Source: Verrucomicrobiota bacterium (lineage in GTDB: Bacteria > Verrucomicrobiota > Verrucomicrobiia > Palsa-1439). From it: a stretch of DNA of 64,000 nt. Shown piece by piece: positions 18,306 through 36,233 of this stretch. Location: NCBI GenBank assembly GCA_037127585.1, contig JBAXYB010000003.1, forward strand, positions 3,248 through 67,247. The letters are read 5' to 3'. Within the stretch, counting starts at the first letter, position 1; every line of letters starts with the position of its first letter. The notes under the pieces were generated by a model. It searched no databases. It had not been told where the DNA came from and worked only from the letters and a program-made list of their open reading frames with translations. The position numbers were made by a program, and so were the translations under genes.

Positions 18306-18312
18306 GGTGTCT

Positions 18313-18717: not shown

Positions 18718-19646
18718 CGCGCTTCCCAGAATTTGTCGCTTTGATACCGCGCCCCGCCGTCCGGCGCAACCGCGACGATGACGCCTTGTTGAATCCGCCC
18801 GGCCAACGTCACCGCCGCGCAGACAGCGGCTCCCGCACTGATGCCGACGAACAAGCCTTCCGCGCTCGTCAGTTGTCGGGCCATCGCTTGGGCGTCTTCA
18901 GTGCTGACGCCGATGGTTTCGTCGGCGAATTTCGAGCTGAATATTTCCGGCACGTGCGAGGCCGTCTCCATATGTTTGAGACCTTCGAGACCGTGGAACG
19001 GTCCTTCGGGTTGCATCGCGATGATGCGGATGGCCGGATTGTGTTCGCGGAGCCGGCGGCCAGTGCCCATCAACGTTCCGCTCGTGCCAAGGCCGGCAAT
19101 GAAATGCGTTACTTCGCCGGCGGTTTGCGTGATGATTTCTGCGCCGGTCGTCTCGTAATGGGCTTGGGGGTTCTCGAGGTTTCCGTACTGGTTTGGGTAG
19201 AAGTACTGGCCGGTACTGGTTTCGAGGAGCTTCTGCGTTTCATAATACGCGCCGTCGCTGCCTTGCGCTGGATCGGTGAGAACTAATTCGGCTCCGTATG
19301 AAGCGAGCAACTTTTTCCGTTCGATGCTCGCGTTTGCCGGCATGAGCAGTTTGCACCGATAACCTTTGCGGGCGGCAATCATCGCGTACGCGATGCCGGT
19401 GTTGCCGCTGGTAGCGTCGACAATGGTTTTGTCTTTTGTCAGCGCACCGGAGATTTCGCCTTGGCGAATCATCCGGTACGCGGGCCGGTCTTTCACGGAG
19501 CCGCCCGGGTTGAACCATTCGGCTTTCAGGAAAACGCGGACATGCGGAAAAGTCGCGATGCGGAGCAGGGGAATGAGCGGCGTGTTGCCGATCTGGCGTA
19601 GTAACGCGTCGGAATCATCAGCCGGCAATGGAGAGGCGCTATTCAA
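18714..19646 (-). CDS. cysM: cysteine synthase (CysM/CysK family, PLP-dependent)
   Basis: PLP-lysine motif KAEWFNPGGSVKDRPAYRMI, plus SGNTGIAYAMIAA. The ORF-track N-terminal extension is rejected because it runs through the tRNA. Probable TTG start at 19646. Confidence 0.75.
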   Translation of the reverse strand: MNSASPLPADDSDALLRQIGNTPLIPLLRIATFPHVRVFLKAEWFNPGGSVKDRPAYRMIRQGEISGALTKDKTIVDATSGNTGIAYAMIAARKGYRCKLLMPANASIERKKLLASYGAELVLTDPAQGSDGAYYETQKLLETSTGQYFYPNQYGNLENPQAHYETTGAEIITQTAGEVTHFIAGLGTSGTLMGTGRRLREHNPAIRIIAMQPEGPFHGLEGLKHMETASHVPEIFSSKFADETIGVSTEDAQAMARQLTSAEGLFVGISAGAAVCAAVTLAGRIQQGVIVAVAPDGGARYQSDKFWEAR

Positions 19647-19668
19647 AAGAGTTGTCTTGGGCTTGGAT

Positions 19669-19744
19669 TGGTGGAGATGAGGGGATTCGAACCCCTGGCC
19701 TCCTCGTTGCGAACGAGGCGCTCTACCAACTGAGCTACATCCCC
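19669..19744 (-). tRNA. tRNA-Ala (anticodon CGC), CCA encoded
   Basis: Cloverleaf by eye: 7-bp acceptor stem with G3:U70 (Ala identity), D-arm GCTCAGTTGGTAGAGC, anticodon stem CCTCG/CGAGG with loop TTCGCAA, T-arm GGTTCGAATCC, 3' CCA. Confidence 0.85.
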
Positions 19745-19826
19745 GACCCAAGCGCAGAATCTGCGACGCGCGGAATTTACTGTTTGAGTTGATTGCCGTC
19801 AACGTTTCACTTATGGTCACACCACT

Positions 19827-21278
19827 TTGAATCCCGAGACACAAAATCCAATTACTTTCTCCCTGGAAGAACTCAACGTCACGCCGGATTGGCTGAAAGC
19901 CCCGGTCAAGAGCTATGACCGCCATCCGGGTGATACCGGCAAGCGGTCGTTTGGCGACGGGCCACGCGAGCGGTCGGGCCCACCGCGGGGCGATCGGAAC
20001 GGGCCGCCCCGGCGTGACCGGCCGCCGGGCGGTCGTCGCGATGATCGATCTGGCGGTGGTCGGCCAATGGGTCGCCCAGCGGCACCTCGGGCGGAAGCGC
20101 CCCCGCAACCGTTACCCAATGTGGACGTACTTTTCGTTCCGAACGAGGCGGTACTGGTGGCGTTGATTGACACGGTCAAACAATCACGACGCGCCTTTGC
20201 ACTATTCGATCTCGCGAAACTTGTGCTCAATAAACCCGAGCGCCACAACGTTAAGTTCGTCCCCAAAGACGGCGAGTTGTACTGTGCGTTGTTGGCCGGC
20301 GGTGTGTTTTTGTCGCGCGAAGAGGCCATCCGCCACACGCTCCGGCAGGGAGTGGACAAAGTTTTCTCCCGCCAAGAAAAACCAATTGATCCGCCGAAAG
20401 GTAATTTCCAATTCGTCAATCGCTGCGGTCTGACCGGCGAATGGCTGGGACCACCGAACTATCACGAATACCAAGCGCGGCTCGTGCGTCATCACCAACA
20501 ACGGTTCGCGCACATGCCTTTCGACCGATTTAAGTCGAGCGTTGAGACGGTTCACGATCCAGAGGCCGTCAAAGCCTGGATCGAGTCCAAGAGCAAAGTG
20601 ACCGAATACACCTGCCTGCTCGACGCCGAGCCGAAGGTGTTTGCCGACCGGACGGAGTTGGAGAAACATATCCGGCAAGAACACCTCGACAAGATTGTCT
20701 CCGCCGTCAATGTCGTCGAACTGACTGGAGTGATGTCGCGCCAAGTCGAAGATCGCCGGTTGCTCGACCTCGTGCGCGACGCGTGGGAAAGCGAACACCG
20801 CTTCCCGATTCGGACCGTGAACGAACTCCGGCCCCAGCTCGTCAAAGCCGGTCTCCATTTCTTCAAACACAAAAAAGGCGTGACCTACATTACGCCCATT
20901 AAGCTGAACCGGTTTGATGCCATCACGCACCTGACTGAGCACGTGCAAAAGATCATCACGTATCTGCGCGCCCATGACGACGCGACGCGCAAAAAACTCG
21001 CCGAGCATCTCGCGCCGGTTGACGAGACCATGCTGGCGTCAGACCTCCACTGGCTCATTCAAGACGGGTACGTTGTTGAATTCCACAACGGCCGCCTCTG
21101 GGCTTTGGATGACCGGCCCGCGAAGCCAGTCACTCCGCCGCCCGCCGCTCAGACAGCCGAAATTGCTGCTGAGGCGCCGGCTCCGTCAAATCCGGCCGAC
21201 CCGGTGCCAAATTTGGCTGCACCAGCAACCGAAACAGTTCAAGCAGCGGCCCCGGTAATCGACAATCCGCCAAATTAG
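19827..21278 (+). CDS. hypothetical protein with Arg/Gly/Pro-rich N-terminal low-complexity region
   Basis: 483-aa ORF (TTG start per the track). RGG/RGD-like N-terminal tract (GPPRGDRNGPPRRDRPPGGRRDDRSGGGRP). Conserved-looking globular region and Pro/Ala-rich tail. No motif I recognise. Confidence 0.5.
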   Translation: MNPETQNPITFSLEELNVTPDWLKAPVKSYDRHPGDTGKRSFGDGPRERSGPPRGDRNGPPRRDRPPGGRRDDRSGGGRPMGRPAAPRAEAPPQPLPNVDVLFVPNEAVLVALIDTVKQSRRAFALFDLAKLVLNKPERHNVKFVPKDGELYCALLAGGVFLSREEAIRHTLRQGVDKVFSRQEKPIDPPKGNFQFVNRCGLTGEWLGPPNYHEYQARLVRHHQQRFAHMPFDRFKSSVETVHDPEAVKAWIESKSKVTEYTCLLDAEPKVFADRTELEKHIRQEHLDKIVSAVNVVELTGVMSRQVEDRRLLDLVRDAWESEHRFPIRTVNELRPQLVKAGLHFFKHKKGVTYITPIKLNRFDAITHLTEHVQKIITYLRAHDDATRKKLAEHLAPVDETMLASDLHWLIQDGYVVEFHNGRLWALDDRPAKPVTPPPAAQTAEIAAEAPAPSNPADPVPNLAAPATETVQAAAPVIDNPPN

Positions 21279-23994: not shown

Positions 23995-24150
23995 CTTTTT
24001 GCCGGTGGGGACAGTGGAAAATGCAAAACCCACTGTCCGAACCGGACAGTGGGTTGTTTACCGTTTCTCAGCGCAAAGCTCAACCCGCTGTCCGACCCGT
24101 CAGGGCCAGACCTAGCAACGCCAGAAGCAAGTTGAGATTACAATTCATTA
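23995..24150 (-). promoter_or_regulatory. transcription attenuator (leader peptide + antiterminator/terminator alternative hairpins) controlling leuA
   Basis: mRNA segments A GGACAGCGGGUUG (contains the leader stop), B CAACCCACUGUCCG, C CGGACAGUGGG, then UUUUGCAUUUU, then D CCACUGUCC. B:C is a perfect 11-bp hairpin followed by the U tract (terminator). A:B (13 bp, 1 mismatch) is the mutually exclusive antiterminator. Confidence 0.6.
24080..24148 (-). CDS. leu operon leader peptide (22 aa, MNCNLNLLLALLGLALTGRTAG)
   Basis: 8 of 22 codons are Leu (mixed codons incl. CUA). The stop codon lies inside the first stem of an alternative-hairpin attenuator directly upstream of leuA. Confidence 0.6.
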   Translation of the reverse strand: MNCNLNLLLALLGLALTGRTAG

Positions 24151-24211: not shown

Positions 24212-25615
24212 CTACGGTCCAATCACGATGCCGGGAGTGGTGGGCTGCTTGGGGGAAAACTCACCGCCAAGGCTTTCGATGAGGTAATGCCGCGTGTCGA
24301 TGGAGAACTCCGCCATGTAGGGCGTGCCCTTGAGTTGGCTCAGCAGGCCGGCCATGACTTTGCGGAGTTGATAGGACGGCATATCGATCAACTTCTTTAT
24401 CATCTGGTCGGCGAGCGTCACGTCGCCGATAAACTTCAGATACCGGACGCCTTCGGCGCGCGTGTCGTCCATGTCGTACATCGGTTCGGTGGCGGGAGGC
24501 GACGGCGGGACGACTTTCTCGGTGATGATCTGCATTACGCGTTTGGTCGAATCGCGGTCACCGAGGAGGCGCAGCGATTCGATGGCGCGTTGGCGGGTGG
24601 TCGGGCCGTGGGCTTTCATTTCGAAGAGCACTTTTTGGAGCGGGGCGATGGCTTGCTTATCGCCAAGCTTGCCGAGGGCTTCGGCGGCGTTCGACTGCGT
24701 CTCTTCGTTGCTGGTGCCAAGTAACCCGATCAATACCGGCACGGCAGCAGTCGCGGGCAGTTCGCCGAGCGCCCACGCGACGCGGGCTTGGGCGAACGGC
24801 GGACATTTTGAGACAGCATCCAGCATTGGTTGCCGGGAATCGGGATTACCGAGTTTGCCGACGGCGTCTGCCGTCGCCCGCGCCACCAGCGGATTGACAT
24901 CGAGGAGCAGGGGATGGAGTGCGATGGCCACTGCCGGTTGCTTCCAGCCGCCAAGTGCGCGGGCGGACTCAGTGCGAACCGGCGCGCTCGGATGTTTCAA
25001 CAATTCCACGAGCGCATCGCGGGCCGTGTCGCTATGAATCGACAGCAACGCGTCAGCGGCCGCCCGGCGCACGAATGGATCGTCGTCACGACCGAGCTGG
25101 CGGGCCAGTGCCACGCTCATTTCGACGCGGAGCGCGCCGAGCGCTTCGCAGACGTGCCGGCGCAGAACGGAGTCAGTGCTATCGAGCAGTGGAATGAGAT
25201 CGTCCGCCAGCCCGGTAAGTTTCAGCTTCGCAGCGGCATCAGCGGCGAGTTGCTGTTTAAGCGGACTCTTGTTTGTCAGATCGTACCGGATTTGGTCAGG
25301 GTTGGTCGGTTCTTCGATGGCCTTTGCTGTAATGGCCGATGGTTTATTGAGCGCTTGCTCGCGGACGGTGGCGACCGGGTCATTGGCCAGTTTGCGAATC
25401 AGTTCGACGTCGGCGGGATCACAGATCGTTTGCAGGGCGACAAGGCCTTGAATGCGGATGAGCGGGTCTTTCTCGCGCAGGCTGGCGCGGAGCATGTCGT
25501 GAGTCGCCGCGTCTTTCACCGGCATGAGAATCACCCCGGTCTCCAAGTTCGTCTCGATGACTTGGGCGAATGTCGCATTGGCCAGCGACAATAAGATAAT
25601 AATGACGTGTTTCAT
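24212..25615 (-). CDS. secreted HEAT-repeat protein
   Basis: Signal peptide MKHVIIILLSLANATFAQ followed by HEAT/PBS-lyase-type repeats. Start overlaps the stop of the ABC permease gene. Confidence 0.7.
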   Translation of the reverse strand: MKHVIIILLSLANATFAQVIETNLETGVILMPVKDAATHDMLRASLREKDPLIRIQGLVALQTICDPADVELIRKLANDPVATVREQALNKPSAITAKAIEEPTNPDQIRYDLTNKSPLKQQLAADAAAKLKLTGLADDLIPLLDSTDSVLRRHVCEALGALRVEMSVALARQLGRDDDPFVRRAAADALLSIHSDTARDALVELLKHPSAPVRTESARALGGWKQPAVAIALHPLLLDVNPLVARATADAVGKLGNPDSRQPMLDAVSKCPPFAQARVAWALGELPATAAVPVLIGLLGTSNEETQSNAAEALGKLGDKQAIAPLQKVLFEMKAHGPTTRQRAIESLRLLGDRDSTKRVMQIITEKVVPPSPPATEPMYDMDDTRAEGVRYLKFIGDVTLADQMIKKLIDMPSYQLRKVMAGLLSQLKGTPYMAEFSIDTRHYLIESLGGEFSPKQPTTPGIVIGP

Positions 25616-27285
25616 TTTTCGGGCGAAAGCATTTTCCAAATACGCTGGCAGGCGATAATGAAAAAGATGGCGCTCAGAGCTAAGACAAACGTGACATGCG
25701 AATGCCACAACTCGCGCGACTCACTGAAGTATTCGGTCGTCAACGCCTGGATTGCGCCGACAAACGGATTCAGCGCTAAAATCGCATCGCGGATGTTGCC
25801 GGCCAAATGCTCGCCGAGCAAAAGCGGAAAGAACGTCGCGACCGAGAGCACGGCAAGAATGCCGTAGGCGATTCCGGTCGCGGAGGCGGTCTTCTTCGCG
25901 ACCGCCGAACTGAATAGCCCGGTCATCAATGCCAGCAGAATCGTCGCGCCGATGATTTTCCAAGCGATGAAGATCTGTTGGAGCGTGTTGGTCTTCAGGT
26001 AGTAGATTGAGAACCACAACGGGATCGCGCCGACAACCACGAACAACACAAACACGGCCGCCGTGAATAGTTTGCCCCAGAGGAACTGCCAAGCGCTGAT
26101 CCGCGTCTGCCGGAGTAAGTCGAGGTTGCCGCGTTCGCGTTCCTGCGTAATCGCGCCGACGGTCAACGACGGCACGACGAGCACGATCAAGCCGAGTTGA
26201 AAGACCAGCGCCACCGTCCGGATTAAGTCGGGACTGCCGAGCGCGATGTTGCCGGCGACGAGTGACATCAAAATCATCGAGCCGGCCAGGCACAAATACG
26301 CGCAACGAAAAATCCAGATGCCGCCACCGAACGCTTGCGCGCGCATTTCGCGGGCGAAGACCGGGTTGATCCAATCGGGAATGTGCCCGCGCCGACGGAT
26401 CGGGTCGATCAGGTAGAATGGAAAGCTGAGTTTGCGTTGTGCCAGCAGCTTTGGGTCGTCGATGACCGGTGAGTGAGCCCGCGACGGTTGCCGGGCCGAG
26501 CGATACACGCTGGTGAGCAAATAAACGAGCAAACCAAACGACACCGTCCCGGCAAAGCCCGCAAAGATTATCCACGACGCCGGCAAGCCGGTCTTGCCGC
26601 CGCCAGGCGCGAGGTCAAACGCCGGCACGACCACCGATGCGATGGCTGCCAACGGGCTGCAAGACCGCACCAACACCGTCCAGTACGCCGCTTCGGGGCG
26701 CGTCTGCAGGATGACGTAAGGAATCCACGGCAACGCGTTGAGCCCGAGAATCAGCAGGTACGTCGTCACGAGCGCCGAGTGCGACGTGGGCCGCGCGGCG
26801 CTGATTGCCAACCCAAGCAACGCGAGAAACAGCGCTGTCAGCGCGGTCAGTCCGAAGATGATGATGGTTTCCGGCACCGACACCGCGCCGAGGAAGAAGC
26901 ACGCCGTAAAAATTGGAAACGACAGCACGACGAATAGCAGCAGACACGTCACCGATGAGAATAGCTTGCCGGTGATGATGTCCGCCGGACTCAATTGGGT
27001 CGTGAACAACAGCTCGTACGAGTTCTGTTCTTTCTCGACGGTAATGGCCGTCGCGCCAAAAGCCGGCGCGTACAACATCACCAGCAACAGTTGCCCGATG
27101 GTGAACACGAGCAACACCGACCGGGTCGATTGCGCCGCCAAAGAGTAAATGCCCTCGGTCGGCCAGAGAAACCAGACCACCGCCGCCAGCCCGGCAAGAT
27201 ACAGCGCCGTCAGCAGAAACGTCAGCCGACTGCGCAGCGCGCTCGTCAGTTCGCGGTGGAGGATGGGGTTATCGAGCATCGTCAA
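25612..27285 (-). CDS. ABC-2 type transporter permease (large, ~12 TM)
   Basis: 557-aa polytopic membrane protein with duplicated 6-TM ABC-2 organisation. Coupled to the upstream ATPase gene. Confidence 0.7.
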   Translation of the reverse strand: MTMLDNPILHRELTSALRSRLTFLLTALYLAGLAAVVWFLWPTEGIYSLAAQSTRSVLLVFTIGQLLLVMLYAPAFGATAITVEKEQNSYELLFTTQLSPADIITGKLFSSVTCLLLFVVLSFPIFTACFFLGAVSVPETIIIFGLTALTALFLALLGLAISAARPTSHSALVTTYLLILGLNALPWIPYVILQTRPEAAYWTVLVRSCSPLAAIASVVVPAFDLAPGGGKTGLPASWIIFAGFAGTVSFGLLVYLLTSVYRSARQPSRAHSPVIDDPKLLAQRKLSFPFYLIDPIRRRGHIPDWINPVFAREMRAQAFGGGIWIFRCAYLCLAGSMILMSLVAGNIALGSPDLIRTVALVFQLGLIVLVVPSLTVGAITQERERGNLDLLRQTRISAWQFLWGKLFTAAVFVLFVVVGAIPLWFSIYYLKTNTLQQIFIAWKIIGATILLALMTGLFSSAVAKKTASATGIAYGILAVLSVATFFPLLLGEHLAGNIRDAILALNPFVGAIQALTTEYFSESRELWHSHVTFVLALSAIFFIIACQRIWKMLSPEK

Positions 27286-28216
27286 CCCTCCGCTTGCCGG
27301 CTTTGGCTTCGGCGGTGATTTTTAGGTAGACGTTCTCAAGCTCGACCGGCACCTCGCGGTACCAGAGAACGCCGTGGCCTTGCTTCACTAAATCCGCCAG
27401 CAACGCGACGATGTCTTCATCCTTACCGGCGAGCGAGACACGGATCATGTTGCCGACGACTTGCTGCACTTCGGTTTTGGTCTTGAGGTAATCGGCGGTC
27501 TTGCCGGCGTCGCCGGTCACTTCGATTTCGATCATCCGCTGATCTTCAATTTGATGGAGCACGTTCGCGACGCTGTCGCACAACAACATCTTGCCTTGTT
27601 CGATGATGCCGACCCGGTCGCACGTCGTGGCGAGCTCCGGTAGGATGTGCGATGAAACCAAAATCGTCTTGCCAAGTTGCTGGAGCGTCTTCAACAACGC
27701 GCGCATCTCGATCCGGGCCCGCGGGTCCAGGCCGTTGGTTGGTTCGTCGAGGAACAACACTTTTGGATCGTGAATCAACGTCCGCGCGATGCCGACGCGT
27801 TGCTTCATGCCGTGCGAGAGGGAATCGACGAAGTAATCCTTCATCTCGTCCGCGCCGGATATCTTCAGAACATCGTCCACTCGTGATTTTCGTTTTGCTT
27901 TCGGAATCCGGTGGGCGGCGGCGAAGAAGTCGAGGTATTCCCACACGCGCATGCCCCGGTACACGCCGACGGCATCGGGCGCGTATCCGACGACTTCCTT
28001 GGCGCGTCGCGGATGCGCGACGACGTCGATGCCGCCGACTTCGGCCTTGCCGGAGGTGGGGGCCATCATGCCGGCGAGGATGCGGATCGTCGTGGTCTTG
28101 CCGGAGCCGTTGGGGCCGATGTAGCCGAAGATTTCTTTTTCGGCGACGTTGAGAGTGAGATTGTCGAGGGCGAGGAAGTTCTCGTACTTCTTCGTAAGGT
28201 TTTCGGTGCGGATCAC
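27269..28216 (-). CDS. ABC transporter ATP-binding protein
   Basis: Walker A GPNGSGKTTT, ABC signature LSHGMKQRVGIA, Walker B LFLDEPTNGLD. Confidence 0.9.
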   Translation of the reverse strand: MIRTENLTKKYENFLALDNLTLNVAEKEIFGYIGPNGSGKTTTIRILAGMMAPTSGKAEVGGIDVVAHPRRAKEVVGYAPDAVGVYRGMRVWEYLDFFAAAHRIPKAKRKSRVDDVLKISGADEMKDYFVDSLSHGMKQRVGIARTLIHDPKVLFLDEPTNGLDPRARIEMRALLKTLQQLGKTILVSSHILPELATTCDRVGIIEQGKMLLCDSVANVLHQIEDQRMIEIEVTGDAGKTADYLKTKTEVQQVVGNMIRVSLAGKDEDIVALLADLVKQGHGVLWYREVPVELENVYLKITAEAKAGKRRVDDAR

Positions 28217-30552
28217 GGGACGGTACCTCCAAGTTCGAAATCAAGTTCGCGAATCTGCCAGTAGTTGACCGAGGTCGGTTCGGTTAAGCCGAGCGGTTCG
28301 ATGTCCACCGCCACGAGGAACGAGCGGGTGACCGGGTCGTACCACTGGGCTGGATTGGGAATGGTTTCGCCGGTAAGCGGCAGGTGGCGTTTCTCGTCGG
28401 TCGATTGGATTTGGACGCGGCACTTAAATGCGCTGCCCCGGTAGTTGACGAAAACTTTGGCGCTGGTGATCTGCAAGTCCGGGCACTCTGCCGGCAAGGT
28501 GAACTCCGCGAGAATCGTGCTGCTGCGCGTGCCGGAGTAACGGCCTTCGGCGCGTTCGACGGTCCGGGCGTCCTTGTTTTTCAGGCGTAACGTCATCAAC
28601 CCGCGCGGCACCGTGAGTTGCCGGCCAGCGTAGGTGACCGGCGCTCCGATGTTCCAGAAGTTCACGGCGCGGCGGGCGATTTGTTGTTGGATAGTGACCG
28701 GGAAGAGCGGTTGGTCGCTCCAGCCGTAAACGGCGGGGCCGCGTTCGCGGAAGTTGGTGTTGTCGCCGAGGCGCTGTTTGCCGAGCGTGTAAACCGGGTC
28801 GGGGAAGAAGAGGCGGCGGATGCGGGTGCGGAGTTCGTCGGTCGAGTTCGCGACGACGCGGGTGGTGAACGCGTCGCTGGCGGCGAGGTTGCGGAAGGTT
28901 TTGGTGGCGCCGGCCGGTAAATCGCCAAGGGGCGCGATGAGCCGGTTGCATTTGAAGAAGCAATCTTCCAGCGGTTGCGCGGTCGGATTGTTCACGGTGA
29001 CGGTCAACCCGGCTTCGCTCAAGACTGCGCGAGCTTGGGGTTGTTGGCCGTCGGGCAACACCGCCTGGCCGAACATCGCGCGCATGTCGCTGGCACGAAT
29101 GGCCAACCCCGGCATGCTCAAATCATCATCGACGCGGACACTGAACGGGTCGCCGCCCGGCCGCGGTCGGACGCGCAAGGTTTCGGCCGACGCAGTCAGA
29201 TCGAAGGCGGCGGCGCGCGGCGAATAGAGGCCGAGGACGCTGTGGGCGACGGCGTGTTCGCCGGCGACGTAGATGACGTTGACTTCGTTGAGGAAGGGTT
29301 GCGGTTGGCCTTTCCACCGGTCGGCGGCGACGACGACGGCACCGCCGGTGATGACGGCGAGAATGACCACGACCGGCCAGCCGCGTTCGGGGTTGCGGGT
29401 GAGGCGAAAGGCGTAGAGCACGACGATCAGGCCGGCAGCGAGGACGGCGAGATAAATCAGGATCGGGCCGCGCCCCAGCACTTTGATGCCGGCCAGACTT
29501 GAGACAATGGCATCGGTGCTAGCGGTGCGTTCGAAGAGGCGGTCGGTGGCCGGGATGGTTTTGAGCGCGTAGCTGAGCAGCTCGGCGCTGAAGTTGGTGG
29601 TGCCGGTCCAGCGTTGAAACGCTAGGTCACCGGAATCGAGCGCGAAGGTGGCAACGCTGCCAAGTCCTTCGCGGCGGACGGCGAGGAGCGGGGAGTTGGT
29701 GTCGCCGGCGAGGACGGTGCCGTCCCGAACGACCATGCGGCGGAAGGTTAGACCGTCCTCGAAGACGGTGGGTGTGCCCCACCGGCGGAGGCGGGGTTCA
29801 GTGGCGAGTTTGTCGGCTGGGGCGAACTCGACGGGGGCGATGGCCGGCCAGCTCGGGTTGACCGGTAAGAAAAGGGTGCCGCCCGCGCGCACCCAATCAA
29901 GGATGGCTTGGCGTTGCATGGTGTTCAGATCCGTGGGGCCGGGATCGCCGAGAATCAACAAGCTGACGCTTTCGTAATCGACAGCCCGGGCCGGTAAGTC
30001 GCGGGGCATGACGCTGACAGGGGCGACCGGCTTGCGCGTCCAGCCGGCGGGGAGATCGCTCGGGGTCCGGTACGAAGTCAGGCGCGCATCGGCGACCAGC
30101 ATGAGCGCGGCGTTGTCGGGAATGATTTTCCCGAGGATCTCGTACTGCGACCAAACTTTGAGCCCGCCATCGGTCAGTTTGGCGGTGAGCACTTTGATGA
30201 CGGAGGTGGATTCGGCTTTGTCCTGGCCGGGTTTGGTGATCGGCGCGTTTTCGGAAGCGTCCGGGAAGACGGTGAGATAAATGGTGCGGCGCGACTGGGC
30301 CGGCAGGAAGACGGGTTTGCTGATGCTGATGGATTGGCCTTGGGCGCGGCTGGCCGGTTCGACGACGATGGTGGCGTGGCGGTCGGGGCCAGGATTTTCG
30401 ATGTCCACGCGCAACGGCGTCCAGTGGCGGTTGGGGAACTGGTGGTTGAAACCGAAGGTGGCGTTGCGGATGACTGGCAGTTCGGTCGAATCGGCGCGAC
30501 AGACCAGGGCCAGGCTCAACAGGAAGACCGGAAACAAAAAGAAACGAAGCAT
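28213..30552 (-). CDS. large signal-peptide membrane protein, putative ABC-transporter auxiliary component (GldG-like?)
   Basis: 779 aa. Signal peptide MLRFFLFPVFLLSLALVCRA, a ~350-aa periplasmic domain, two central TM helices, and a second ~350-aa domain. The stop/start overlap (ATGA) couples it to the ABC ATPase gene. Confidence 0.45.
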   Translation of the reverse strand: MLRFFLFPVFLLSLALVCRADSTELPVIRNATFGFNHQFPNRHWTPLRVDIENPGPDRHATIVVEPASRAQGQSISISKPVFLPAQSRRTIYLTVFPDASENAPITKPGQDKAESTSVIKVLTAKLTDGGLKVWSQYEILGKIIPDNAALMLVADARLTSYRTPSDLPAGWTRKPVAPVSVMPRDLPARAVDYESVSLLILGDPGPTDLNTMQRQAILDWVRAGGTLFLPVNPSWPAIAPVEFAPADKLATEPRLRRWGTPTVFEDGLTFRRMVVRDGTVLAGDTNSPLLAVRREGLGSVATFALDSGDLAFQRWTGTTNFSAELLSYALKTIPATDRLFERTASTDAIVSSLAGIKVLGRGPILIYLAVLAAGLIVVLYAFRLTRNPERGWPVVVILAVITGGAVVVAADRWKGQPQPFLNEVNVIYVAGEHAVAHSVLGLYSPRAAAFDLTASAETLRVRPRPGGDPFSVRVDDDLSMPGLAIRASDMRAMFGQAVLPDGQQPQARAVLSEAGLTVTVNNPTAQPLEDCFFKCNRLIAPLGDLPAGATKTFRNLAASDAFTTRVVANSTDELRTRIRRLFFPDPVYTLGKQRLGDNTNFRERGPAVYGWSDQPLFPVTIQQQIARRAVNFWNIGAPVTYAGRQLTVPRGLMTLRLKNKDARTVERAEGRYSGTRSSTILAEFTLPAECPDLQITSAKVFVNYRGSAFKCRVQIQSTDEKRHLPLTGETIPNPAQWYDPVTRSFLVAVDIEPLGLTEPTSVNYWQIRELDFELGGTVP

Positions 30553-30681
30553 GCCGGCCGGAAGTCTTACCCGTCGCAGGTAAAAGGGGAAAGTGAAAAA
30601 ATCAGCGCGAATACCGGCAACTGCGAACTAAGAACCGTTGAACTGGGAAATGCACGAATCAGGATCAACCGCCAAGTCGCC

Positions 30682-31203
30682 CTACGCACGGCCGGTTGCG
30701 GCGGTTACCGGCGATTGCTTGGCGATTAGCCCGTTGATCTCGCGAATCATCGCCGTGTTTTCGCTGACGACTTTGTATTCGACCCAAAATGCGTAGAGGT
30801 TGAATACCACGACCACCCACGAGACCCATGCGTGCAGCATGCCGCGCGAGAGGCCGGTATCTTTGGCGCCGCCAAGCAAGGCGGCGGCGATGATCGTGAT
30901 GCAGCCGAAGGTCGCCATGCCGGAGCTGCGGCCGGTGAGCCGGCGGATCCGACGGGTGTAGCCGGTCTGGGGATCGTTCGGGAGATGATGGGTGGCGATG
31001 GCTTCTTTGATGCCTTTGCCGGAGCCCATGAAATGCATCATCACGACGCAATGGGTCAGGCAGGTGTAGAGGCCGGTCAAGACGCCGAGTCCTTGATGCA
31101 GCCAATTGGCGGAGTGATGCGTCATTCCAAAGTAGAGGGTGATGGCAAATAGGACTACATTCCAGAAAGCCATCCCGATGAAAATCTTGCCCATTTGTAG
31201 CAT
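30682..31203 (-). CDS. hypothetical 4-TM membrane protein
   Basis: 173-aa ORF filling the AKR-to-large-protein gap. Four hydrophobic helices with His/Cys-rich loops (THHSANWLHQG, CLTHCVVMMHFMG). Confidence 0.45.
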   Translation of the reverse strand: MLQMGKIFIGMAFWNVVLFAITLYFGMTHHSANWLHQGLGVLTGLYTCLTHCVVMMHFMGSGKGIKEAIATHHLPNDPQTGYTRRIRRLTGRSSGMATFGCITIIAAALLGGAKDTGLSRGMLHAWVSWVVVVFNLYAFWVEYKVVSENTAMIREINGLIAKQSPVTAATGRA

Positions 31204-31209
31204 AACGTT

Positions 31210-32169
31210 TTATCCCTGCAGTGAACCTTGGACGGCGACCATTTCGTCGCGGGTGATTTGGGGCAACATGCTCGTACCGACATGCGCCTCGACTTGGGCG
31301 CGATCTTTGACGCCGATAATCGCCACCGAGACGGCAACGTTGCTGAGCACAAATTTCACGGCTAACTGCGGGAGCGTGAAACCGGCCCGGGTGGCGACCG
31401 GCCGCAAACGTTCGACGGTATCCATCTGCCGGTCGAACTCGGCCCGACTTTCGCCCGCGAGCCATTTGCTGCGAATATCGTCGGGTGCGAATTGGGAGTT
31501 CTTGTTGTACTTGCCGGTGAGTTTACCCATCGCGAGGACGCCGCGCGCAATGACCGCAATCCCGCGAGCCCGGCAATAGGGGAGAATGTCGCGTTCCGCG
31601 CGGCGGTCGAACAGGTTGTAGTTGCATTGGACTGCGCCGAGAGTCCGCTTTTCGTCGAAGCGCAGCACCATATCGAGATCGTTTGTCGAAACGCCGAACG
31701 CGCGAATCTTGCCGGCTTGCTGGAGAGTGTCGAAGGCGGCGAGAAATTCGGCCCAGCGTTCCGTCCGCCAGATGTGACATTGATAGAGGTCGAGATGGTC
31801 GGTTCGGAGTCGGCGCAGGCTGGCTTCGCACGCGCCGATGATGTAGTCGCGCGATTCGTTGAGGGTCCGGTACCCCGCAGCATCCCGGCCGAAGCCGACT
31901 TTGGTCGCGATGTAAACCTTGTCCCGGCAAGGCTGCAAAGCTTGGCCGAGAATTTCTTCGCTCCGGCCCCAGCCGTATTGGTCGGACGTATCGAAAAAGT
32001 TGCAGCCGAGTTCGACGGCGCGTTGGACGGTGGCGACGGACTCGGTGTCCGTGATTCCGCTCCAGCCGTCGGGCTTGCCGTCCAGCGTAATGGCGCCGCC
32101 GAATTGCCAGCCGCCGACGCCGATTTCGCCGACGCGCCACCCGGTCTTTCCGAAAGTGCGTAGAATCAT
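31210..32169 (-). CDS. aldo/keto reductase family oxidoreductase
   Basis: MILRTFGKTGWRVGEIGVGGW...FFDTSDQYGWGRSEEILGQAL, the typical AKR N-terminus with catalytic Tyr/Asp. ATG overlaps the ccsA stop (TAATG). Confidence 0.85.
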   Translation of the reverse strand: MILRTFGKTGWRVGEIGVGGWQFGGAITLDGKPDGWSGITDTESVATVQRAVELGCNFFDTSDQYGWGRSEEILGQALQPCRDKVYIATKVGFGRDAAGYRTLNESRDYIIGACEASLRRLRTDHLDLYQCHIWRTERWAEFLAAFDTLQQAGKIRAFGVSTNDLDMVLRFDEKRTLGAVQCNYNLFDRRAERDILPYCRARGIAVIARGVLAMGKLTGKYNKNSQFAPDDIRSKWLAGESRAEFDRQMDTVERLRPVATRAGFTLPQLAVKFVLSNVAVSVAIIGVKDRAQVEAHVGTSMLPQITRDEMVAVQGSLQG

Positions 32170-34097
32170 TAGACCTTTTGGACCAGCTGGAAACTGCGCC
32201 AGCGGCGGACCGGTAGGAGGCCGAGGAGGATGAGGCAGACTTGGGTGCCGTTAAAGAGCATCAGCCATTTGAACGCGGCGTCCATGAAGCCGTAGCTGTG
32301 GAGGCCGATGCCGAGCATGTTGACGCCGAACCACGAGAACGCGGTGACGATGTTGCCGAAGATGGCGAGGTTCATCAGGCCGCGGTCGCGGACGAGGCCG
32401 CCCCAGCGCGCGTGGAGGATCAGCGCATTCCAGATCACGATGAGGAGCGCGCCGTTTTCTTTCGGATCCCAACCCCAGAAGCGGCCCCAGGATTGATCCG
32501 CCCAGATGCCGCCGAGGACCGTGCCGACGAAGCTGAAGAGCGTGGCGAAACAGACGATGGCATAAACCATATTGGCCAATGCCTTGCCCAGATTTGCGGT
32601 GCCGGCTTTTGTCGCGAGTACCGGCGTGAAGACGCCGAGAACGATGTAGGCCAGCGCCAAGGTGCCGGCAACGAATGTGGCCGCGTAACCCAGCGTGACA
32701 CAGACGACATGCGTCGCGAGCCAGAAGTTGGTGTCGAGCACGGCGCGGAGCATTTCCATTGTGTCGCCGCCGAGGGCGAGGTTGTGGGCGATCAGTAAGG
32801 TGACGAAGCCGGCCAGTCCGGCGACCGCGCTGCCGAGGCCGATTTTATAGACCCGCTCCAGGACGAGGCCGAGTCCGCACGCGCCCCAACCGATGAAGAT
32901 GGCGGAGGAATAGAGGTTCGTGACCGGCGGTCGGCCTTCGAGCACCATCCGGTAGATGAGGCCAAAGGTGTGGACCACAAAAGCCAGTCCGATCAGGAAA
33001 AATGCCGACCGGCGCAGGGACTCCGAAAGTTGCGGGGCGGGACCGAAAAGCAGCAACGCGCCGGCGGCGAGCATGAAGGCGACGAGATAAATGATGGTGG
33101 CGTGGAGAAAGACTTTTATCTGGTTGAAGTAAAACTCCGACCGGCCTTTGGCCACTTCGCGCGCGAAGCCGGTCAGCAGCCAATTCTTGTAGCCGGACAC
33201 CGCGCTATTGAATTCCGCGGCTTCATCGTGTCCGTACGCCGTGGCCATCCGGGCAAAGAAACTCACCGCTGGCGCGAGCGAGCCGCCGCCGCGCAGGGTG
33301 CTGAGGACGCTGGCGCCGACGTTGAGCCAGGCGTCTTTGTTGGCGGGATCGGTTGGGGGCACGGTCAAGGGATAGGCAAAGTTGGCTTGTTCATCGAACT
33401 GCTGTGCGAGACCGGAGAATCGTTTCAGGGCGGCTTCATCAAACTGCTGGCCGGCCTGCTGCGCGCGCAACGCCGCCAGCCCCGCCGGTAACGCGGCTTG
33501 AAACTTGGCCAGCAACTCCGCGAAGTTGTGCGTGTCTTCGGGCTGGATGCTGCTTTTGAGGCGTTGATAGAGGAGGAGGCCGTTGGCGAGTTTGAGAAGT
33601 TGTTTTTGATAGGTCGTGCGGTTGGCGTCTTCGATGGCGCTGGCGGTGCGCGCTTGGGCCGAGATTTCCGCCAGCCGGTTCTCGAGTTCGGCAAAAGTAT
33701 AGTAGCGCAGGCCGGATTTCTCGACACCCTTGTCGCCGAGTTTGAGTTCGCTGATGAGGTCGGGATGATGAATCAGAAAGATCGGGCGCGAATCCGCGAT
33801 GTCGGGCTTGAAGAAAACTTCGAGCAGCCAGTCGGTGGATTTGAGTTTGGCCGGATGGTGCCAGAATTTCCAGCTGGGAACTTCTTCCAGCGGCACATCG
33901 CCGGTACTGCGAATTTGCAGCAGCGAATTGCGGGCGACCGAGTCGAAGGGTTGGATGCGACCGTTGAGCAAGACCGGCAGGCGACCGAAGTCCGCGGTAT
34001 GCATTGCGCTGTCTTTCTTCGGCAACATCACGACAATGATTTCCGTGGCGAACAGCGCCAGGAACAGCCACGGCAGAGCTTTCAAGAGAGCTTTCAT
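32169..34097 (-). CDS. ccsA: cytochrome c biogenesis protein CcsA (ResC family) with N-terminal extension
   Basis: Trp-rich WWD motif WADQSWGRFWGWDPKENGAL and conserved His residues. Start at MKALLKALPWLF overlaps the ccsB stop (ATGA). Confidence 0.85.
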   Translation of the reverse strand: MKALLKALPWLFLALFATEIIVVMLPKKDSAMHTADFGRLPVLLNGRIQPFDSVARNSLLQIRSTGDVPLEEVPSWKFWHHPAKLKSTDWLLEVFFKPDIADSRPIFLIHHPDLISELKLGDKGVEKSGLRYYTFAELENRLAEISAQARTASAIEDANRTTYQKQLLKLANGLLLYQRLKSSIQPEDTHNFAELLAKFQAALPAGLAALRAQQAGQQFDEAALKRFSGLAQQFDEQANFAYPLTVPPTDPANKDAWLNVGASVLSTLRGGGSLAPAVSFFARMATAYGHDEAAEFNSAVSGYKNWLLTGFAREVAKGRSEFYFNQIKVFLHATIIYLVAFMLAAGALLLFGPAPQLSESLRRSAFFLIGLAFVVHTFGLIYRMVLEGRPPVTNLYSSAIFIGWGACGLGLVLERVYKIGLGSAVAGLAGFVTLLIAHNLALGGDTMEMLRAVLDTNFWLATHVVCVTLGYAATFVAGTLALAYIVLGVFTPVLATKAGTANLGKALANMVYAIVCFATLFSFVGTVLGGIWADQSWGRFWGWDPKENGALLIVIWNALILHARWGGLVRDRGLMNLAIFGNIVTAFSWFGVNMLGIGLHSYGFMDAAFKWLMLFNGTQVCLILLGLLPVRRWRSFQLVQKV

Positions 34098-35239
34098 GCG
34101 ACCTTCCGTTTCTTGGCAAAGCCAACGAGATGAGTCCCGAATTGGACGAGTAATCCCAAACCGACGAGCACGCACGAGAAATACGGCGTGAGCCAACTGG
34201 GGTTGTGAACCACTTGGAGGACGGTCCCTTGGTTGTCGGGGTCAAAGCTGGCTTGGTAGTACGTGTCGCCGTCGTACCGGAGCGGGTTGTTCATGTAGAT
34301 CAAGACTTCGCGCTTCTCGCCGGTCGCCGGGCGCTCGATGCGGACGCGGCTCGAGAAGTTTTTGGGGATATCCGTGCCAGGATATTTGTCGTGCTTGAAT
34401 TCCAGAAGGTGGAGCGTGAACGGCTTGTAGAATCGTTCGCCGCGTAACGCGAGTTGATACCGGCGACCGTTGTGGGTGAATTCCTGGGGCCGCGTCAGAT
34501 ACGCGGAGATGAGAAAGGTGCCGAGCGAGCCTTGCGGCGTGACGAGCTCGACGATGCCGGAGGGCATGTCGCGCCGGTCCATGACGGTTTCGTGCGGCAG
34601 TTCGCGCCACCAGATGCCAGCGCCGAAGCCGGCCGTGACGGCGATTTCGGAATAACCCGGGCCGGTTTTTTCGACGAGAGCCGAGTTTTTGTAATACGTC
34701 TGGACGCGAATGGAGAAGGGCATGTCTGCCTGATTGATCTCGCCCAGCTTCGCCAACCGGCCGGCGGGGATGGCGACGACTTTGTCGGTGGTTGCTTCGG
34801 TCGTATCGATCACTGCGAGTTCATATTGACTCGACGCTTCCGAATAGTTCTTCGTCTCGCCGTGACGCATGTGCAGCATGCTTTCCGTCGAGAGTACATC
34901 GGTCAGCAGTTGCCCGAAGAGCAGGAGGACGACGCCGAGATGAATCATCGCGATGCCGTATTTCTTCTTGCCGGGTTGGTAGTAGCGGAAGTGGGCGGCG
35001 AATAGATTGATGAGCAGGAGCCAGCCGATGGCATAGCCTGCCGGAAAAATCGGAATCCGCCAACTCGATCCGCCCGGCGCCCAGTAGATGAAGAAGCTCC
35101 GAAAGAAATCGTTCTGCGCCCGGTACAACCCAAGATTTACCTGTGCCAGTGTGCCCCAAAACACCAGCACCAACCCCAGCGCCAGCAAAACTACGGTGAG
35201 CCGGAGTGACGTAACAATCTTGTAGAGCTTGGTAAGCAT
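34094..35239 (-). CDS. ccsB: cytochrome c biogenesis protein CcsB/ResB
   Basis: N-terminal TM region (LRLTVVLLALGLVLVFWGTLAQVNLGLYRAQNDFFRSFFIYW), large periplasmic domain and C-terminal TM. The ResB profile. Confidence 0.8.
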   Translation of the reverse strand: MLTKLYKIVTSLRLTVVLLALGLVLVFWGTLAQVNLGLYRAQNDFFRSFFIYWAPGGSSWRIPIFPAGYAIGWLLLINLFAAHFRYYQPGKKKYGIAMIHLGVVLLLFGQLLTDVLSTESMLHMRHGETKNYSEASSQYELAVIDTTEATTDKVVAIPAGRLAKLGEINQADMPFSIRVQTYYKNSALVEKTGPGYSEIAVTAGFGAGIWWRELPHETVMDRRDMPSGIVELVTPQGSLGTFLISAYLTRPQEFTHNGRRYQLALRGERFYKPFTLHLLEFKHDKYPGTDIPKNFSSRVRIERPATGEKREVLIYMNNPLRYDGDTYYQASFDPDNQGTVLQVVHNPSWLTPYFSCVLVGLGLLVQFGTHLVGFAKKRKVA

Positions 35240-35240
35240 C

Positions 35241-36233
35241 TCAGTACTTAGCCTCTTGCACGAATTTGCTAAACGCATCTTTCTGGGCGGCGACAATCTT
35301 GGCGTCACCCATCAGCTTGTAGAACCACGCTTGCCCCGGCTGCAGCACCATCGCGCCGACCAGTGCGGCGGGCTGACCGCTCCGTGCATCTGTGCCGGAC
35401 ATCTCGACGAAGGTTGCCGAACCGCGCGTCAAAGCTGCCTTCGCGAGTTCGTCGGAGGTCTGCTCACCTAAGCCGAGTTGCTTGCGCCACCGGTTCACAT
35501 TCGCCGCCAAGCCGCCGCCATCGCCGGCCGACGAACTTATGTTCACGGCGGCTTGGCCGCCGGCAATCGTGAACTTAGCCACGAGAAATTGTCCGCCGGT
35601 CACTTCCGTCCAGTCGCCGGGCGGCGTCCATTGCGGCTTGTCGGCGTTCGCGGCGGGCGCGGTTTCAGTGGTCGCGAATTGAAGCGATTTGAGAAACTCG
35701 ACAAAGACCGGCTTTTGTTGCGCCACGAGTTGATCGTCGCCGGTCATTTTGTAAAACCAGGCCGTGCCGGTCCGATGTTGAATGACAGCTAGAATCCGCA
35801 GCGGTTCGCCATTCGGGCCGGCGCCGGCTTGCTCGTAAAGTTCAGCAGACTGACCGGCCAACTCGACTGGTTGCGCGAGCGCCTTCAATTCCGTCTCGGA
35901 TACCGGCGGTTGACTGACTTGGCCGCGCCACCGGTTCACATTGCTAAGTTCGCCGCCTGCCGCGCCCGGTAACGGGACGATGCTGACATCGGCTTCCTTG
36001 CCGGCTGGCCCTTTGACCCGGAACGACGCCACGCGGAATTCACTTGGTGCGCCTTCCTTCCAGCCGGCCGGTAAATTCCATTTCAACTTCGGCGGGGCTG
36101 GCTCTGCCGCGTGGTCCGCATGGCCGTCGGGCATCGCTGGCGGTGCCGACTGTTCTTTCGGGACGGTATAAACTTTGATGTCGTTCTGTTCGCAGCCGGT
36201 CAGTCCCAGCGCGAATAGGACACATACCTTCAC
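35241..36233 (-). CDS. hypothetical lipoprotein with tandemly duplicated domain
   Basis: Lipobox ALGLTGC (probable GTG start). Two internal ~130-aa repeats, each with W.(L|P)P.(G|D)W.E, (R|L)VA.F and NVNRWR(G|K)Q motifs. Start overlaps the ccsB region. Confidence 0.5.
   Translation of the reverse strand: MKVCVLFALGLTGCEQNDIKVYTVPKEQSAPPAMPDGHADHAAEPAPPKLKWNLPAGWKEGAPSEFRVASFRVKGPAGKEADVSIVPLPGAAGGELSNVNRWRGQVSQPPVSETELKALAQPVELAGQSAELYEQAGAGPNGEPLRILAVIQHRTGTAWFYKMTGDDQLVAQQKPVFVEFLKSLQFATTETAPAANADKPQWTPPGDWTEVTGGQFLVAKFTIAGGQAAVNISSSAGDGGGLAANVNRWRKQLGLGEQTSDELAKAALTRGSATFVEMSGTDARSGQPAALVGAMVLQPGQAWFYKLMGDAKIVAAQKDAFSKFVQEAKY

Follow-up and report, generated by a model that had tools for sequence, protein, structure and literature searches.

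Four overlapping genes, here designated A, B, C and D, occupy the minus strand at positions 24212-30552 of the window, that is, of the whole 64,000-nucleotide stretch of Verrucomicrobiota DNA that was analysed. The positions of their open reading frames were checked in the sequence, and the features of the locus are as follows.

28213..30552, minus strand: gene A, 779 amino acids from an ATG start; membrane-anchored accessory protein of an unnamed family
30493..30552, minus strand: predicted signal peptide of A, residues 1-20, MLRFFLFPVFLLSLALVCRA with cleavage before D; cleavage site inferred from the sequence
29473..30492, minus strand: first periplasmic ectodomain of A, residues ~21-360
29311..29472, minus strand: membrane hairpin of A, residues 361-414, with the short conserved cytoplasmic loop R-L-T-R-N-P-E-R-G-W
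28216..29310, minus strand: second periplasmic ectodomain of A, residues 415-779, all-beta
27269..28216, minus strand: gene B, ABC ATPase, 315 amino acids from a GTG start
25612..27279, minus strand: gene C, fused tandem ABC-2 permease, 555 amino acids from the ATG at 27279
25612..27285, minus strand: longest open reading frame of gene C, 557 amino acids from a TTG start
24212..25615, minus strand: gene D, HEAT-repeat protein with a predicted signal peptide, 467 amino acids from the ATG at 25615
24212..25708, minus strand: longest open reading frame of gene D
24027..24055, minus strand: terminator-like hairpin with a 13-bp stem, 8 G-C pairs and a T-rich tail, which closes the operon

Genes A to D constitute a real, co-translated and conserved four-gene operon. 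The GTG start codon of B is contained within a 4-nt GTGA overlap with A, and a GGAGG sequence can be read 10 nt upstream. The overlap between B and C amounts to 17 nt if C starts at the TTG and to 11 nt from the ATG at 27279; the shorter value is the likely one, because a GGAGG precedes this ATG by 7 nt and translation from it yields the N-terminus "ML.NP" common to the orthologues. C and D in turn share a 4-nt ATGA overlap. The translational coupling of all four genes proposed in a preliminary description of this DNA is thus borne out, with overlaps of 4, 11 (17 for the longest open reading frame) and 4 nt. A strong terminator hairpin lies 157 nt past the D stop codon, between D and a LeuA-like gene that is unrelated. 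No sigma-70-like promoter was seen upstream of A, and a search of the window with Rfam placed no family in or near the operon, its sole match being a tRNA at 19672..19744. Upstream of the operon, the window also holds ResB and CcsA-like cytochrome c maturation genes, as recognized by Pfam.

The same arrangement is found throughout related Verrucomicrobiota, where A precedes B in 18 of 18 loci, A-B-C is found in 17, and the complete order A-B-C-D is kept in all 16 loci whose contigs reach far enough. Since the four genes recur in the same order in 16/16 loci, the arrangement is not a matter of chance, and the conservation on which the preliminary description had hinged is confirmed. Between two Verrucomicrobiota subclades, identities are 33-36% for A, 63% for B, 50% for C and 35% for D, with C being the best conserved non-ATPase gene across the clade. 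The context in distant clades was read from nine loci with A-like genes at about 20-25% identity; a homologue search with a 104-sequence alignment yielded hardly any sequences outside the near clade. Among clusters of the A family, Anaerolineae were the one taxon for which look-ups gave names. A B orthologue (44-68% identity) directly follows the A-like gene in seven of the nine (L019, L021, L022, L023, L024, L026 and L027), and the A-ATPase pair is therefore considered the conserved core. The permease is split over two genes in L019, does not adjoin the A-B pair in L022 and L023, and in L029 is an ABC-2 permease directly after the A-like gene. In L028 the A-like gene has no adjoining ABC gene, and in L027 it is translationally coupled to a gene for a MoxR AAA_3 ATPase.

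The flanks of the 18 Verrucomicrobiota loci hold no conserved neighbour pointing to a pathway. Only one gene, of the pseudopilin-like N_methyl/DUF1559 kind, recurs in these flanks, following D in seven loci; it was treated as incidental because genes of this family are highly abundant in these phyla. DegT, epimerase and GT2 sugar-nucleotide enzymes or a polyprenyl synthase adjoin the module in three distant contexts; few such neighbours were seen, some of them transcribed in the divergent direction. A metagenome locus scan returned nothing with P0047, and with P0064 only the contig that carries P0064 itself.

By its sequence, B is an intact ABC ATPase. It scores 100 bits against ABC_tran (PF00005; cut-off 25; E=2e-28), and its translation shows Walker A as GPNGSGKT, the signature in the variant form LSHGMKQR, Walker B as LFLDEP, including the catalytic Glu, and the H-loop as SSHIL. 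The best NCBIfam match is drrA (TIGR01188) at 226.7 bits, below the cut-off of 312.45; GldA (TIGR03522; 220.6 bits against a cut-off of 402.6) and a lantibiotic-protection ATPase model (169 bits) likewise fall below threshold. The nearest solved sequences are the nucleotide-binding domains of ABCA1, ABCA3, ABCA4 and ABCA7, at 188-195 bits, with NosF more distant at 118 bits.

C holds both membrane halves in one polypeptide. Three Pfam models are passed, each over two stretches: ABC2_membrane_3 (PF12698; 50.6 bits, cut-off 31.6), ABC2_membrane_2 (PF12679; 37.4 bits, cut-off 27.2) and ABC2_membrane (PF01061; 33.3 bits, cut-off 26.9). Among NCBIfam models the best match is GldF (TIGR03518) at 56.8 bits, below its cut-off of 288.5, and a SagH-type permease model is matched weakly. 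The duplication of the permease given in the preliminary description is substantiated, with halves that are 27% identical over 172 amino acids (E=3e-11), and a hydropathy scan shows about 12-13 hydrophobic segments. Both halves also contain an N-P-x-x-x-R-E helix and the motif E-[KR]-E-x-x-x-x-[ED]-L-L. Comparison of the C sequence profile to the PDB gave no meaningful match to any solved chain.

Hydropathy and a structure model agree with the layout originally read from protein A, namely a signal peptide and two ectodomains separated by a 2-TM hairpin. The N-terminus shows a hydropathy peak at residues 1-22 and a helix at 2-18 in the model; a Cys at the signal peptide is not kept in the family consensus, and thus A is probably not a lipoprotein. 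The first ectodomain consists of a beta-sandwich (27-154) and, after it, an alpha/beta domain (176-330) of a non-catalytic GATase1-like/GIFT type, in which neither Cys nor His is found among the conserved columns. In structure comparison, the fold matches the GIFT proteins IFT52 and OST48. The second ectodomain comprises a mu-homology-like double beta-sandwich and a jelly-roll-like module, and neither of the two large domains contains anything other than non-catalytic modules for binding or scaffolding. The full-length model is of moderate confidence only (pLDDT 69, pTM 0.44), so the relative placement of the domains is not fixed by it. A DUF4340-like fused partner was considered for the C-terminal half and found no support, there being no Pfam match in that half at E<=0.05.

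The hairpin is marked by hydropathy peaks at 364-382 and 392-410 and by model helices at 361-383 and 388-414. Within its loop, E389, G391 and W392 are invariant in the clade, and the consensus across the wide family reads LRxxxRxExAW. Two central hydrophobic segments are present in 113 of 123 full-length distant representatives of A, and the loop motif R.E.[GAS]W is kept in 64/116.

A is 100% identical to [quoted passage not shown], and its family profile gathers 6,537 representative clusters at E<=1e-3. At E<=0.1, A matches no NCBIfam model, GldG (TIGR03521) included, and has no Pfam match to ABC_transp_aux (PF09822); none of 10 further family members matches any NCBIfam model. DUF4350 (PF14258) is matched at 18.7 bits (E=0.0023), short of the gathering score of 30.4. 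This model is matched at E<=0.1 by 19 of 26 clade members (best E=1.1e-6), and one member, P0012, has a precomputed PF14258 assignment. DUF7408 (PF24157; gathering score 27 bits) is not among the Pfam matches of A and is weakly matched by 2/26 clade members. The distant family member P0032 passes it at 35.5 bits, and DUF7408 thus covers part of the wider A family; our literature search found no mention of this domain. With GldG-type proteins A shares a GIFT-type extracytoplasmic domain as well as a co-encoded ABC-2 permease and ABC ATPase. It is therefore GldG-like in fold and role, yet below the thresholds of the GldG, ABC_transp_aux and DUF4350 models. Accordingly, the likeness to GldG and ABC_transp_aux suggested at the outset stands for the fold and the gene partners but fails at the level of the models.

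The start of D that gives a signal peptide (MKHVIIILLSLANATFA, with cleavage before Q) is the ATG at 25615, and a signal-peptide-like N-terminus together with the ATGA overlap of C and D recurs in most orthologues. D is a predicted secreted HEAT-repeat protein that matches HEAT_2 (PF13646) at 147.6 bits (E=1e-43) over five stretches, as well as HEAT_PBS and, weakly, the NblB and CpcE lyase models. Orthologues were found only in the Verrucomicrobiota clade and are absent from the distant loci that could be checked; the terminal HEAT gene remarked upon earlier is thus conserved within the clade but not beyond it. Another HEAT protein is encoded at 11627..13582, near an ExbB-like gene; the HEAT repeats that it has in common with D are weak evidence of a shared function.

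On balance, and with moderate confidence, we take the operon to encode a cell-envelope transport machine of the ABC-2 (type V) kind. The transporter type is assigned because the ABC-2 Pfam cut-offs are passed, GldA/DrrA and GldF are the nearest models, and the ABCA proteins are the nearest solved ATPases. Its function is most likely that of an ATP-driven envelope exporter or mechanotransducer, and it probably acts on some cell-envelope component. If we may guess at a cargo by analogy, it might be a lipid-linked or polymeric envelope component, whether glycan or lipid. This guess draws on family precedents and on weak context, the hints being the sugar-nucleotide and polyprenyl neighbours in three distant contexts and the proposal, as cited in PMC7226087, that GIFT domains are sugar binders (Beatson and Ponting 2004).

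In the mechanism envisaged for such a machine, two copies of B would lie under one C, and the hairpin of A would pack against C, bringing the conserved cytoplasmic loop of A (R-x-E-x-G-W) close to the ATPase. Such a placement would explain why the genes for A and the ATPase have stayed neighbours in lineages that are very distant from one another. Movements of C powered by ATP could then be relayed to the periplasmic part of A, which would either receive material expelled from the membrane or itself be moved, and A may hand such material to D, a soluble alpha-solenoid that would serve as carrier or adaptor. No permease lies beside the A-B pair in L022 and L023, which makes the stoichiometry, and even the need for C, tentative. 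The A-like gene without an ABC neighbour in L028 counts against this reading, as does the lack of a conserved neighbour in the flanks that would indicate a pathway.

The best-known ABC-2 example with a GIFT-type accessory protein is GldAFG. Like the operon, GldA/GldF/GldG of Flavobacterium johnsoniae combine an ABC-2 permease and an ABC ATPase with a large periplasmic accessory protein that is anchored in the membrane and has a GIFT/GATase1-like alpha/beta domain. The highest-scoring named NCBIfam models include GldA (220.6 bits) and GldF (56.8 bits). That the operon is a true orthologue of this Bacteroidota gliding-motility transporter is nevertheless close to refuted, and we regard it as highly improbable. 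The Gld models remain far under their cut-offs (402.6 and 288.5), neither TIGR03521 nor ABC_transp_aux matches A, and no other gld or type IX secretion gene occurs among the window ORFs scanned with Pfam. The architecture also differs: GldG has one ectodomain between two terminal anchors, whereas A has a central two-helix hairpin and an all-beta second ectodomain, for which we know of no counterpart in GldG. Moreover, the operon has a fused tandem permease and an added HEAT protein, and its host is a Verrucomicrobiota bacterium, without a gliding or type IX secretion context. A second set of relatives is formed by the DUF4350 (arCOG01314) proteins of MoxR-vWA neighbourhoods, for which a complex acting in secretion or membrane remodelling has been predicted (Makarova et al. 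2015, PMC5898192). These resemble A in their signal peptide, extracytoplasmic GldG-related flavodoxin-like domain and membrane anchor; a direct, weak likeness to DUF4350 is seen in the 19/26 members noted above, and the coupling to a MoxR AAA_3 ATPase gene in L027 is a further resemblance. Unlike them, A has an ABC ATPase as its constant partner, rather than MoxR and a vWA protein, and it has one more membrane helix and one more ectodomain.

NosDFY, which is needed for nitrous oxide reductase maturation, likewise joins an ABC-2 permease and ATPase to a large periplasmic protein and sets a precedent for ATP hydrolysis driving periplasmic work. In a NosDFY- or FtsEX-like mechanotransducer without a transported substrate, B would move C, and C would work the periplasmic A and D; D would be a chaperone of the HEAT type, either loading a cofactor or remodelling a client in the periplasm. 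Consistent with this are the scaffold-like, non-catalytic ectodomains of A, the presence of NosF among the solved relatives of B, and the matches of C to GldF and to ABC2_membrane_2, a model that also covers NosY-type permeases. The HEAT_PBS and weak NblB/CpcE lyase matches of D, which cover cofactor-handling proteins, and the ResB and CcsA-like genes upstream point the same way. We nonetheless consider this alternative unlikely: ABCA-type ATPase domains score much higher than NosF, neither ectodomain of A has the NosD beta-helix fold, no NosD-, NosL- or NosZ-like gene is present, no nos gene was seen by Pfam among the scanned neighbours, and the ResB/CcsA neighbourhood is conserved in no other locus. 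In addition, distant clades that retain A-B(-C) have no D, which therefore cannot be the universal client. Less probable still is an efflux pump for resistance or immunity, of the ABC-2 kind represented by DrrAB or by lantibiotic immunity, in which a toxic peptide or hydrophobic compound would be expelled and A and D would serve as shields or binders. The drrA model is the best match of B, and lantibiotic-protection and SagH-type models are also hit, but all of these scores are well under the family cut-offs, and no biosynthetic or regulatory genes lie beside the operon in any locus. A strictly conserved accessory protein of ~800 amino acids and a housekeeping-like, clade-wide distribution, both seen here, are not known to be typical for immunity pumps.

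The ABC-2 transport machine favoured above finds a further parallel in the eukaryotic ABCA lipid exporters, in which one chain comprises two type V membrane halves and two large extracytoplasmic domains. By analogy, both ectodomains of the operon's machine would be supplied in trans by A, whereas those of ABCA sit within the permease chain; the comparison with A is put forward purely as an analogy. A broader proposal, offered tentatively and with appreciable doubt, is that the A family represents a widespread, undescribed class of ABC-coupled envelope machines, in Verrucomicrobiota, Anaerolineae and probably other phyla. In these, a hairpin-anchored A would give the type V core two ectodomains in trans, as ABCA has in cis, and the loop would contact the ATPase, so that the A-ATPase pair, and not the permease-ATPase pair, would be the fixed unit.

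Much of the bacterial envelope depends for its construction or upkeep on ABC-2 transporters that have accessory proteins, and the operon adds a clean and conserved case from a phylum that has been little studied. It brings to light the large A family, thousands of sequence clusters that are all called "hypothetical" and lack an NCBIfam model, and whose genes are nearly always linked to a single type of ABC ATPase. Should the hairpin loop indeed contact the ATPase, this would represent an unusual wiring of an ABC transporter to a periplasmic assembly and a handle by which thousands of genes could be annotated; if not, this would be an ordinary uncharacterised ABC-2 exporter operon.

Beside A, a 266-aa ORF at 30665..31465 was rejected as a gene, because it overlaps the gene of an aldo-keto reductase and its translation, rich in Arg and Pro, is implausible. 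The region is better explained by an ORF at 30682..31203 that would encode a 173-aa membrane protein.

The accessory membrane protein A, which consists of a signal peptide, an ectodomain, a two-helix hairpin and a second ectodomain, is a GIFT-type protein with a new two-ectodomain architecture; it belongs to a large, unannotated family and is encoded together with an ABC-2 transporter. Its gene is followed by those for an ABC ATPase (B), a fused double ABC-2 permease (C) and a HEAT-repeat protein (D):

28213..30552, reverse strand: A, 779-aa ORF
27269..28216, reverse strand: B, 315-aa ORF
25612..27285, reverse strand: C, longest ORF, 557 aa
24212..25708, reverse strand: D, longest ORF

As read in the sequence, A and B are joined by a 4-nt GTGA overlap with GGAGG ahead of it, and the overlap of B and C is 17 nt when counted from the TTG start of C. 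The true B/C overlap is probably 11 nt, since an alternative ATG start at 27279 is preceded by GGAGG at a distance of 7 nt and yields the “ML.NP” N-terminus common to all orthologues. With D starting at ATG 25615, the C/D junction is a 4-nt ATGA overlap and the product begins with a typical signal peptide (MKHVIIILLSLANATFA|Q). A G+C-rich hairpin with a 13-bp stem and a T-rich tail (24055..24027, reverse strand) lies 157 nt past D, and beyond it is an unrelated LeuA-type gene. The preliminary description was correct in what it said of the sequence.

A “hypothetical protein” from a Verrucomicrobiota metagenome-assembled genome matches A at 100% identity, and a scan limited to one genome for each species recovered 18 loci with record titles mostly of Pedosphaera, Limisphaerales and other Verrucomicrobiota bins. 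Searches with the four window proteins (tblastn) found A-B-C-D in one order and orientation in all 16 of the sufficiently long loci, which bears out the operon conservation that had been proposed as a check; the remaining two contigs stop after B and after C. Identity between the two subclades is 33-36% for A, ~63% for B, ~50% for C and ~35% for D (tblastn), and the C/D ATGA junction and the signal peptide of D are seen again in most loci. An all-against-all comparison of the flanking ORFs of the 18 loci yielded no further conserved neighbour, and the four genes are thus a self-contained unit. A pseudopilin-like gene of ~280 aa (N_methyl motif, DUF1559) is present in seven loci, immediately past the HEAT gene in six; it lies at 17043..17882 in L002, at equivalent positions in L007, L011, L013, L015 and L016, and on the opposite strand in L004, with no copy in the window or L001. 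Several of the operon-bearing public bins (L004, L005, L009, L010, L012, L015, L016) bear titles that name Klebsiella, Akkermansia muciniphila or Proteobacteria, probably as wrong organism labels.

Judged by its motifs, B is an intact ABC ATPase, with a PF00005 match of 100 bits and legible Walker A, signature, Walker B and H-loop elements. C passed three ABC-2 permease models, in two stretches apiece, and reads as an internal duplication with halves 27% identical over 172 aa (E=3e-11); a hydropathy scan gives ~12-13 hydrophobic segments. Each half starts with an N-P-x-x-x-R-E helix and carries an E-[KR]-E-x-x-x-x-[ED]-L-L motif past its second membrane helix, a position that, from what is generally known of type V ABC transporters, would be the ATPase-facing coupling region. 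D has a HEAT_2 match in five stretches (E=1e-43). The window encodes a second HEAT-repeat protein (11627..13582, forward strand; 651 aa; HEAT_2, E=2e-79). A few genes ahead of it lies a 579-aa protein (7395..9134, forward strand) that matches MotA/ExbB weakly and contains a long helical stretch resembling apolipoproteins. These genes are the “ExbB/ExbD cluster” of the preliminary description, which overstates the tie between D and the other HEAT protein.

The HMM search suggested for A came back negative: GldG and ABC_transp_aux models gave no match (NCBIfam, Pfam), and the single Pfam match, to DUF4350, is sub-threshold (18.7 bits vs 30.4). There was also no relevant match to NCBIfam, nor any to the PDB by sequence. 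A profile built from 26 clade members and run against 1.84 billion representative proteins returned 6,537 matches at E<=1e-3, 2,858 at E<=1e-10 and 237 at E<=1e-30, with a length of ~800 aa for most of the matches listed. Two mid-protein hydrophobic segments are present in 113 of 123 full-length distant representatives, and an R-x-E-x-[GAS]-W motif occupies the short loop joining these segments in 64 of 116. Named members, some of them from Anaerolineae, are all “hypothetical protein”; none of 10 members tested matched an NCBIfam model, and Pfam gives DUF4350 or DUF7408 only, mostly sub-threshold. A literature search found one relevant paper on DUF4350 and none on DUF7408.

The full-length AlphaFold model of A is of moderate confidence (pLDDT 69, pTM 0.44). 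Residues 25-330 are well modelled as a β-sandwich (27-154) and an α/β domain (176-330), followed by long helices at 361-383 and 388-414. The GH42 trimerisation domain is listed in the structural comparison of A, and PDB sequence matches of the wide family profile include 3soz (E=2e-9), 2gk3 and 3rht. The GIFT group is named for GldG and IFT52, and its eukaryotic members are IFT52 and Wbp1, the OST48 homologue (Beatson and Ponting 2004, cited in PMC7226087). A glutaminase-type active site in A is unlikely, as the wide family alignment has no Cys or His in invariant or nearly invariant columns. The second ectodomain has ten invariant arginines and CBM-like modules. The signal peptide, together with an Arg-rich turn of four residues that connects the helices, predicts a periplasmic position for both large domains and a cytoplasmic one for the conserved loop.

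Nine readable loci provide the distant context; their A-like proteins share ~20-25% identity with A wherever the two can be aligned over the full length.

Gene neighbourhoods of distant A-like genes
L019: A-B, two separate ABC-2 permease genes and an epimerase, in that order
L021, read also on its longer ENA contig: A-B overlapping by 4 nt; upstream DegT, epimerase and GT2, downstream polyprenyl synthase
L022: A-B; DegT upstream, polyprenyl synthase downstream
L023: A-B with 4-nt overlap
L024, L026: A-B, contig end thereafter
L027 (1..4824): MoxR-type AAA_3 ATPase, A, B, C, with 4-nt overlap at every junction
L029: ABC-2 permease directly after A
L028: A without an adjoining ABC gene

On these gene orders, the most constant feature is the A-ATPase pair, in which the B orthologues are 44-68% identical to that of the window. 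A permease adjoins the pair often, not always, and the HEAT gene is confined to the Verrucomicrobiota clade among the loci compared. At L019 (11234..12879) the permease is split into two ABC-2 genes of 237 and 311 aa, as opposed to the fused 555-aa protein, which suggests that the fusion is lineage-specific. A DUF58/vWA gene lies ~6 kb from another distant family member (ENA contig of P0082), and together with the MoxR coupling at L027 it may link the A family to MoxR-vWA systems.

The nearest named transporter is Flavobacterium GldAFG, as GldA and GldF are among the best NCBIfam matches of B (220.6 bits, cut-off 402.6) and C (56.8 bits, cut-off 288.5), respectively. The operon is best read as working in the manner of a GldG-type assisted ABC-2 transporter, and it stands outside the Gld and ABC_transp_aux families, given scores far below the cut-offs and an A protein that matches neither GldG nor ABC_transp_aux. 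The interpretation in the preliminary description was right in outline and overstated in its tie to GldG, and true gliding-motility orthology is a less likely explanation. Archaeal DUF4350 proteins have been tied to GldG by HHpred and are predicted to join MoxR and vWA proteins in a complex for secretion or membrane remodelling (PMC5898192); the MoxR partner is echoed at L027, whereas the constant partner of A is an ABC ATPase. ABCA lipid exporters provide, with their ATPase domains, the nearest solved relatives of B (~190 bits); they carry two large ectodomains in cis where A would supply two in trans, an analogy that makes no claim of homology.

In the proposed mechanism, two copies of B and one of C would form a type V ABC core that binds A via its hairpin, with the cytoplasmic loop near the ATPase, and the motion powered by ATP would be transmitted to an assembly in the periplasm that A's binding modules make up. 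D, a soluble protein, would serve as carrier or adaptor in Verrucomicrobiota. Family precedent, the sugar binding proposed for GIFT domains (cited in PMC7226087), the CBM-like modules and the presence of sugar-nucleotide or polyprenyl genes in the vicinity of three distant family members do no more than hint at the cargo, which may be an envelope lipid or else a glycan that is lipid-linked or polymeric; resistance efflux is less likely. The main rival to such export is a mechanotransducer like NosDFY, which would export nothing and act instead on a periplasmic client; NosF is a more distant relative of B, at 118 bits.

Further features of the window are as follows:

32169..35308, reverse strand: ResB-like and CcsA-like Cytochrom_C_asm genes (System II cytochrome c biogenesis) and an aldo-keto reductase gene, upstream of the operon
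30682..31203, reverse strand: 173-aa ORF, multi-pass membrane protein-like, between the reductase gene and A
16830..18356, reverse strand: one 508-aa ORF with ThiS, ThiF and rhodanese domains
18714..20108: 464-aa ORF with a PALP domain only from residue 171
19672..19744, reverse strand: tRNA gene (76 bits) within the 5' part of the 464-aa ORF

The ResB/CcsA/reductase neighbourhood was detected in none of the 18 related loci, and the 173-aa ORF has no Pfam match. A 266-aa ORF that overlaps it, at 30665..31465, looks spurious as a gene, with an Arg/Pro-rich translation and an overlap with the reductase gene. The ThiS/ThiF/rhodanese ORF appears to be a sulfur-carrier protein fused to its own activating enzyme. 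Given the tRNA and the late onset of the PALP domain, the true start of the 18714..20108 gene must lie downstream of the tRNA.
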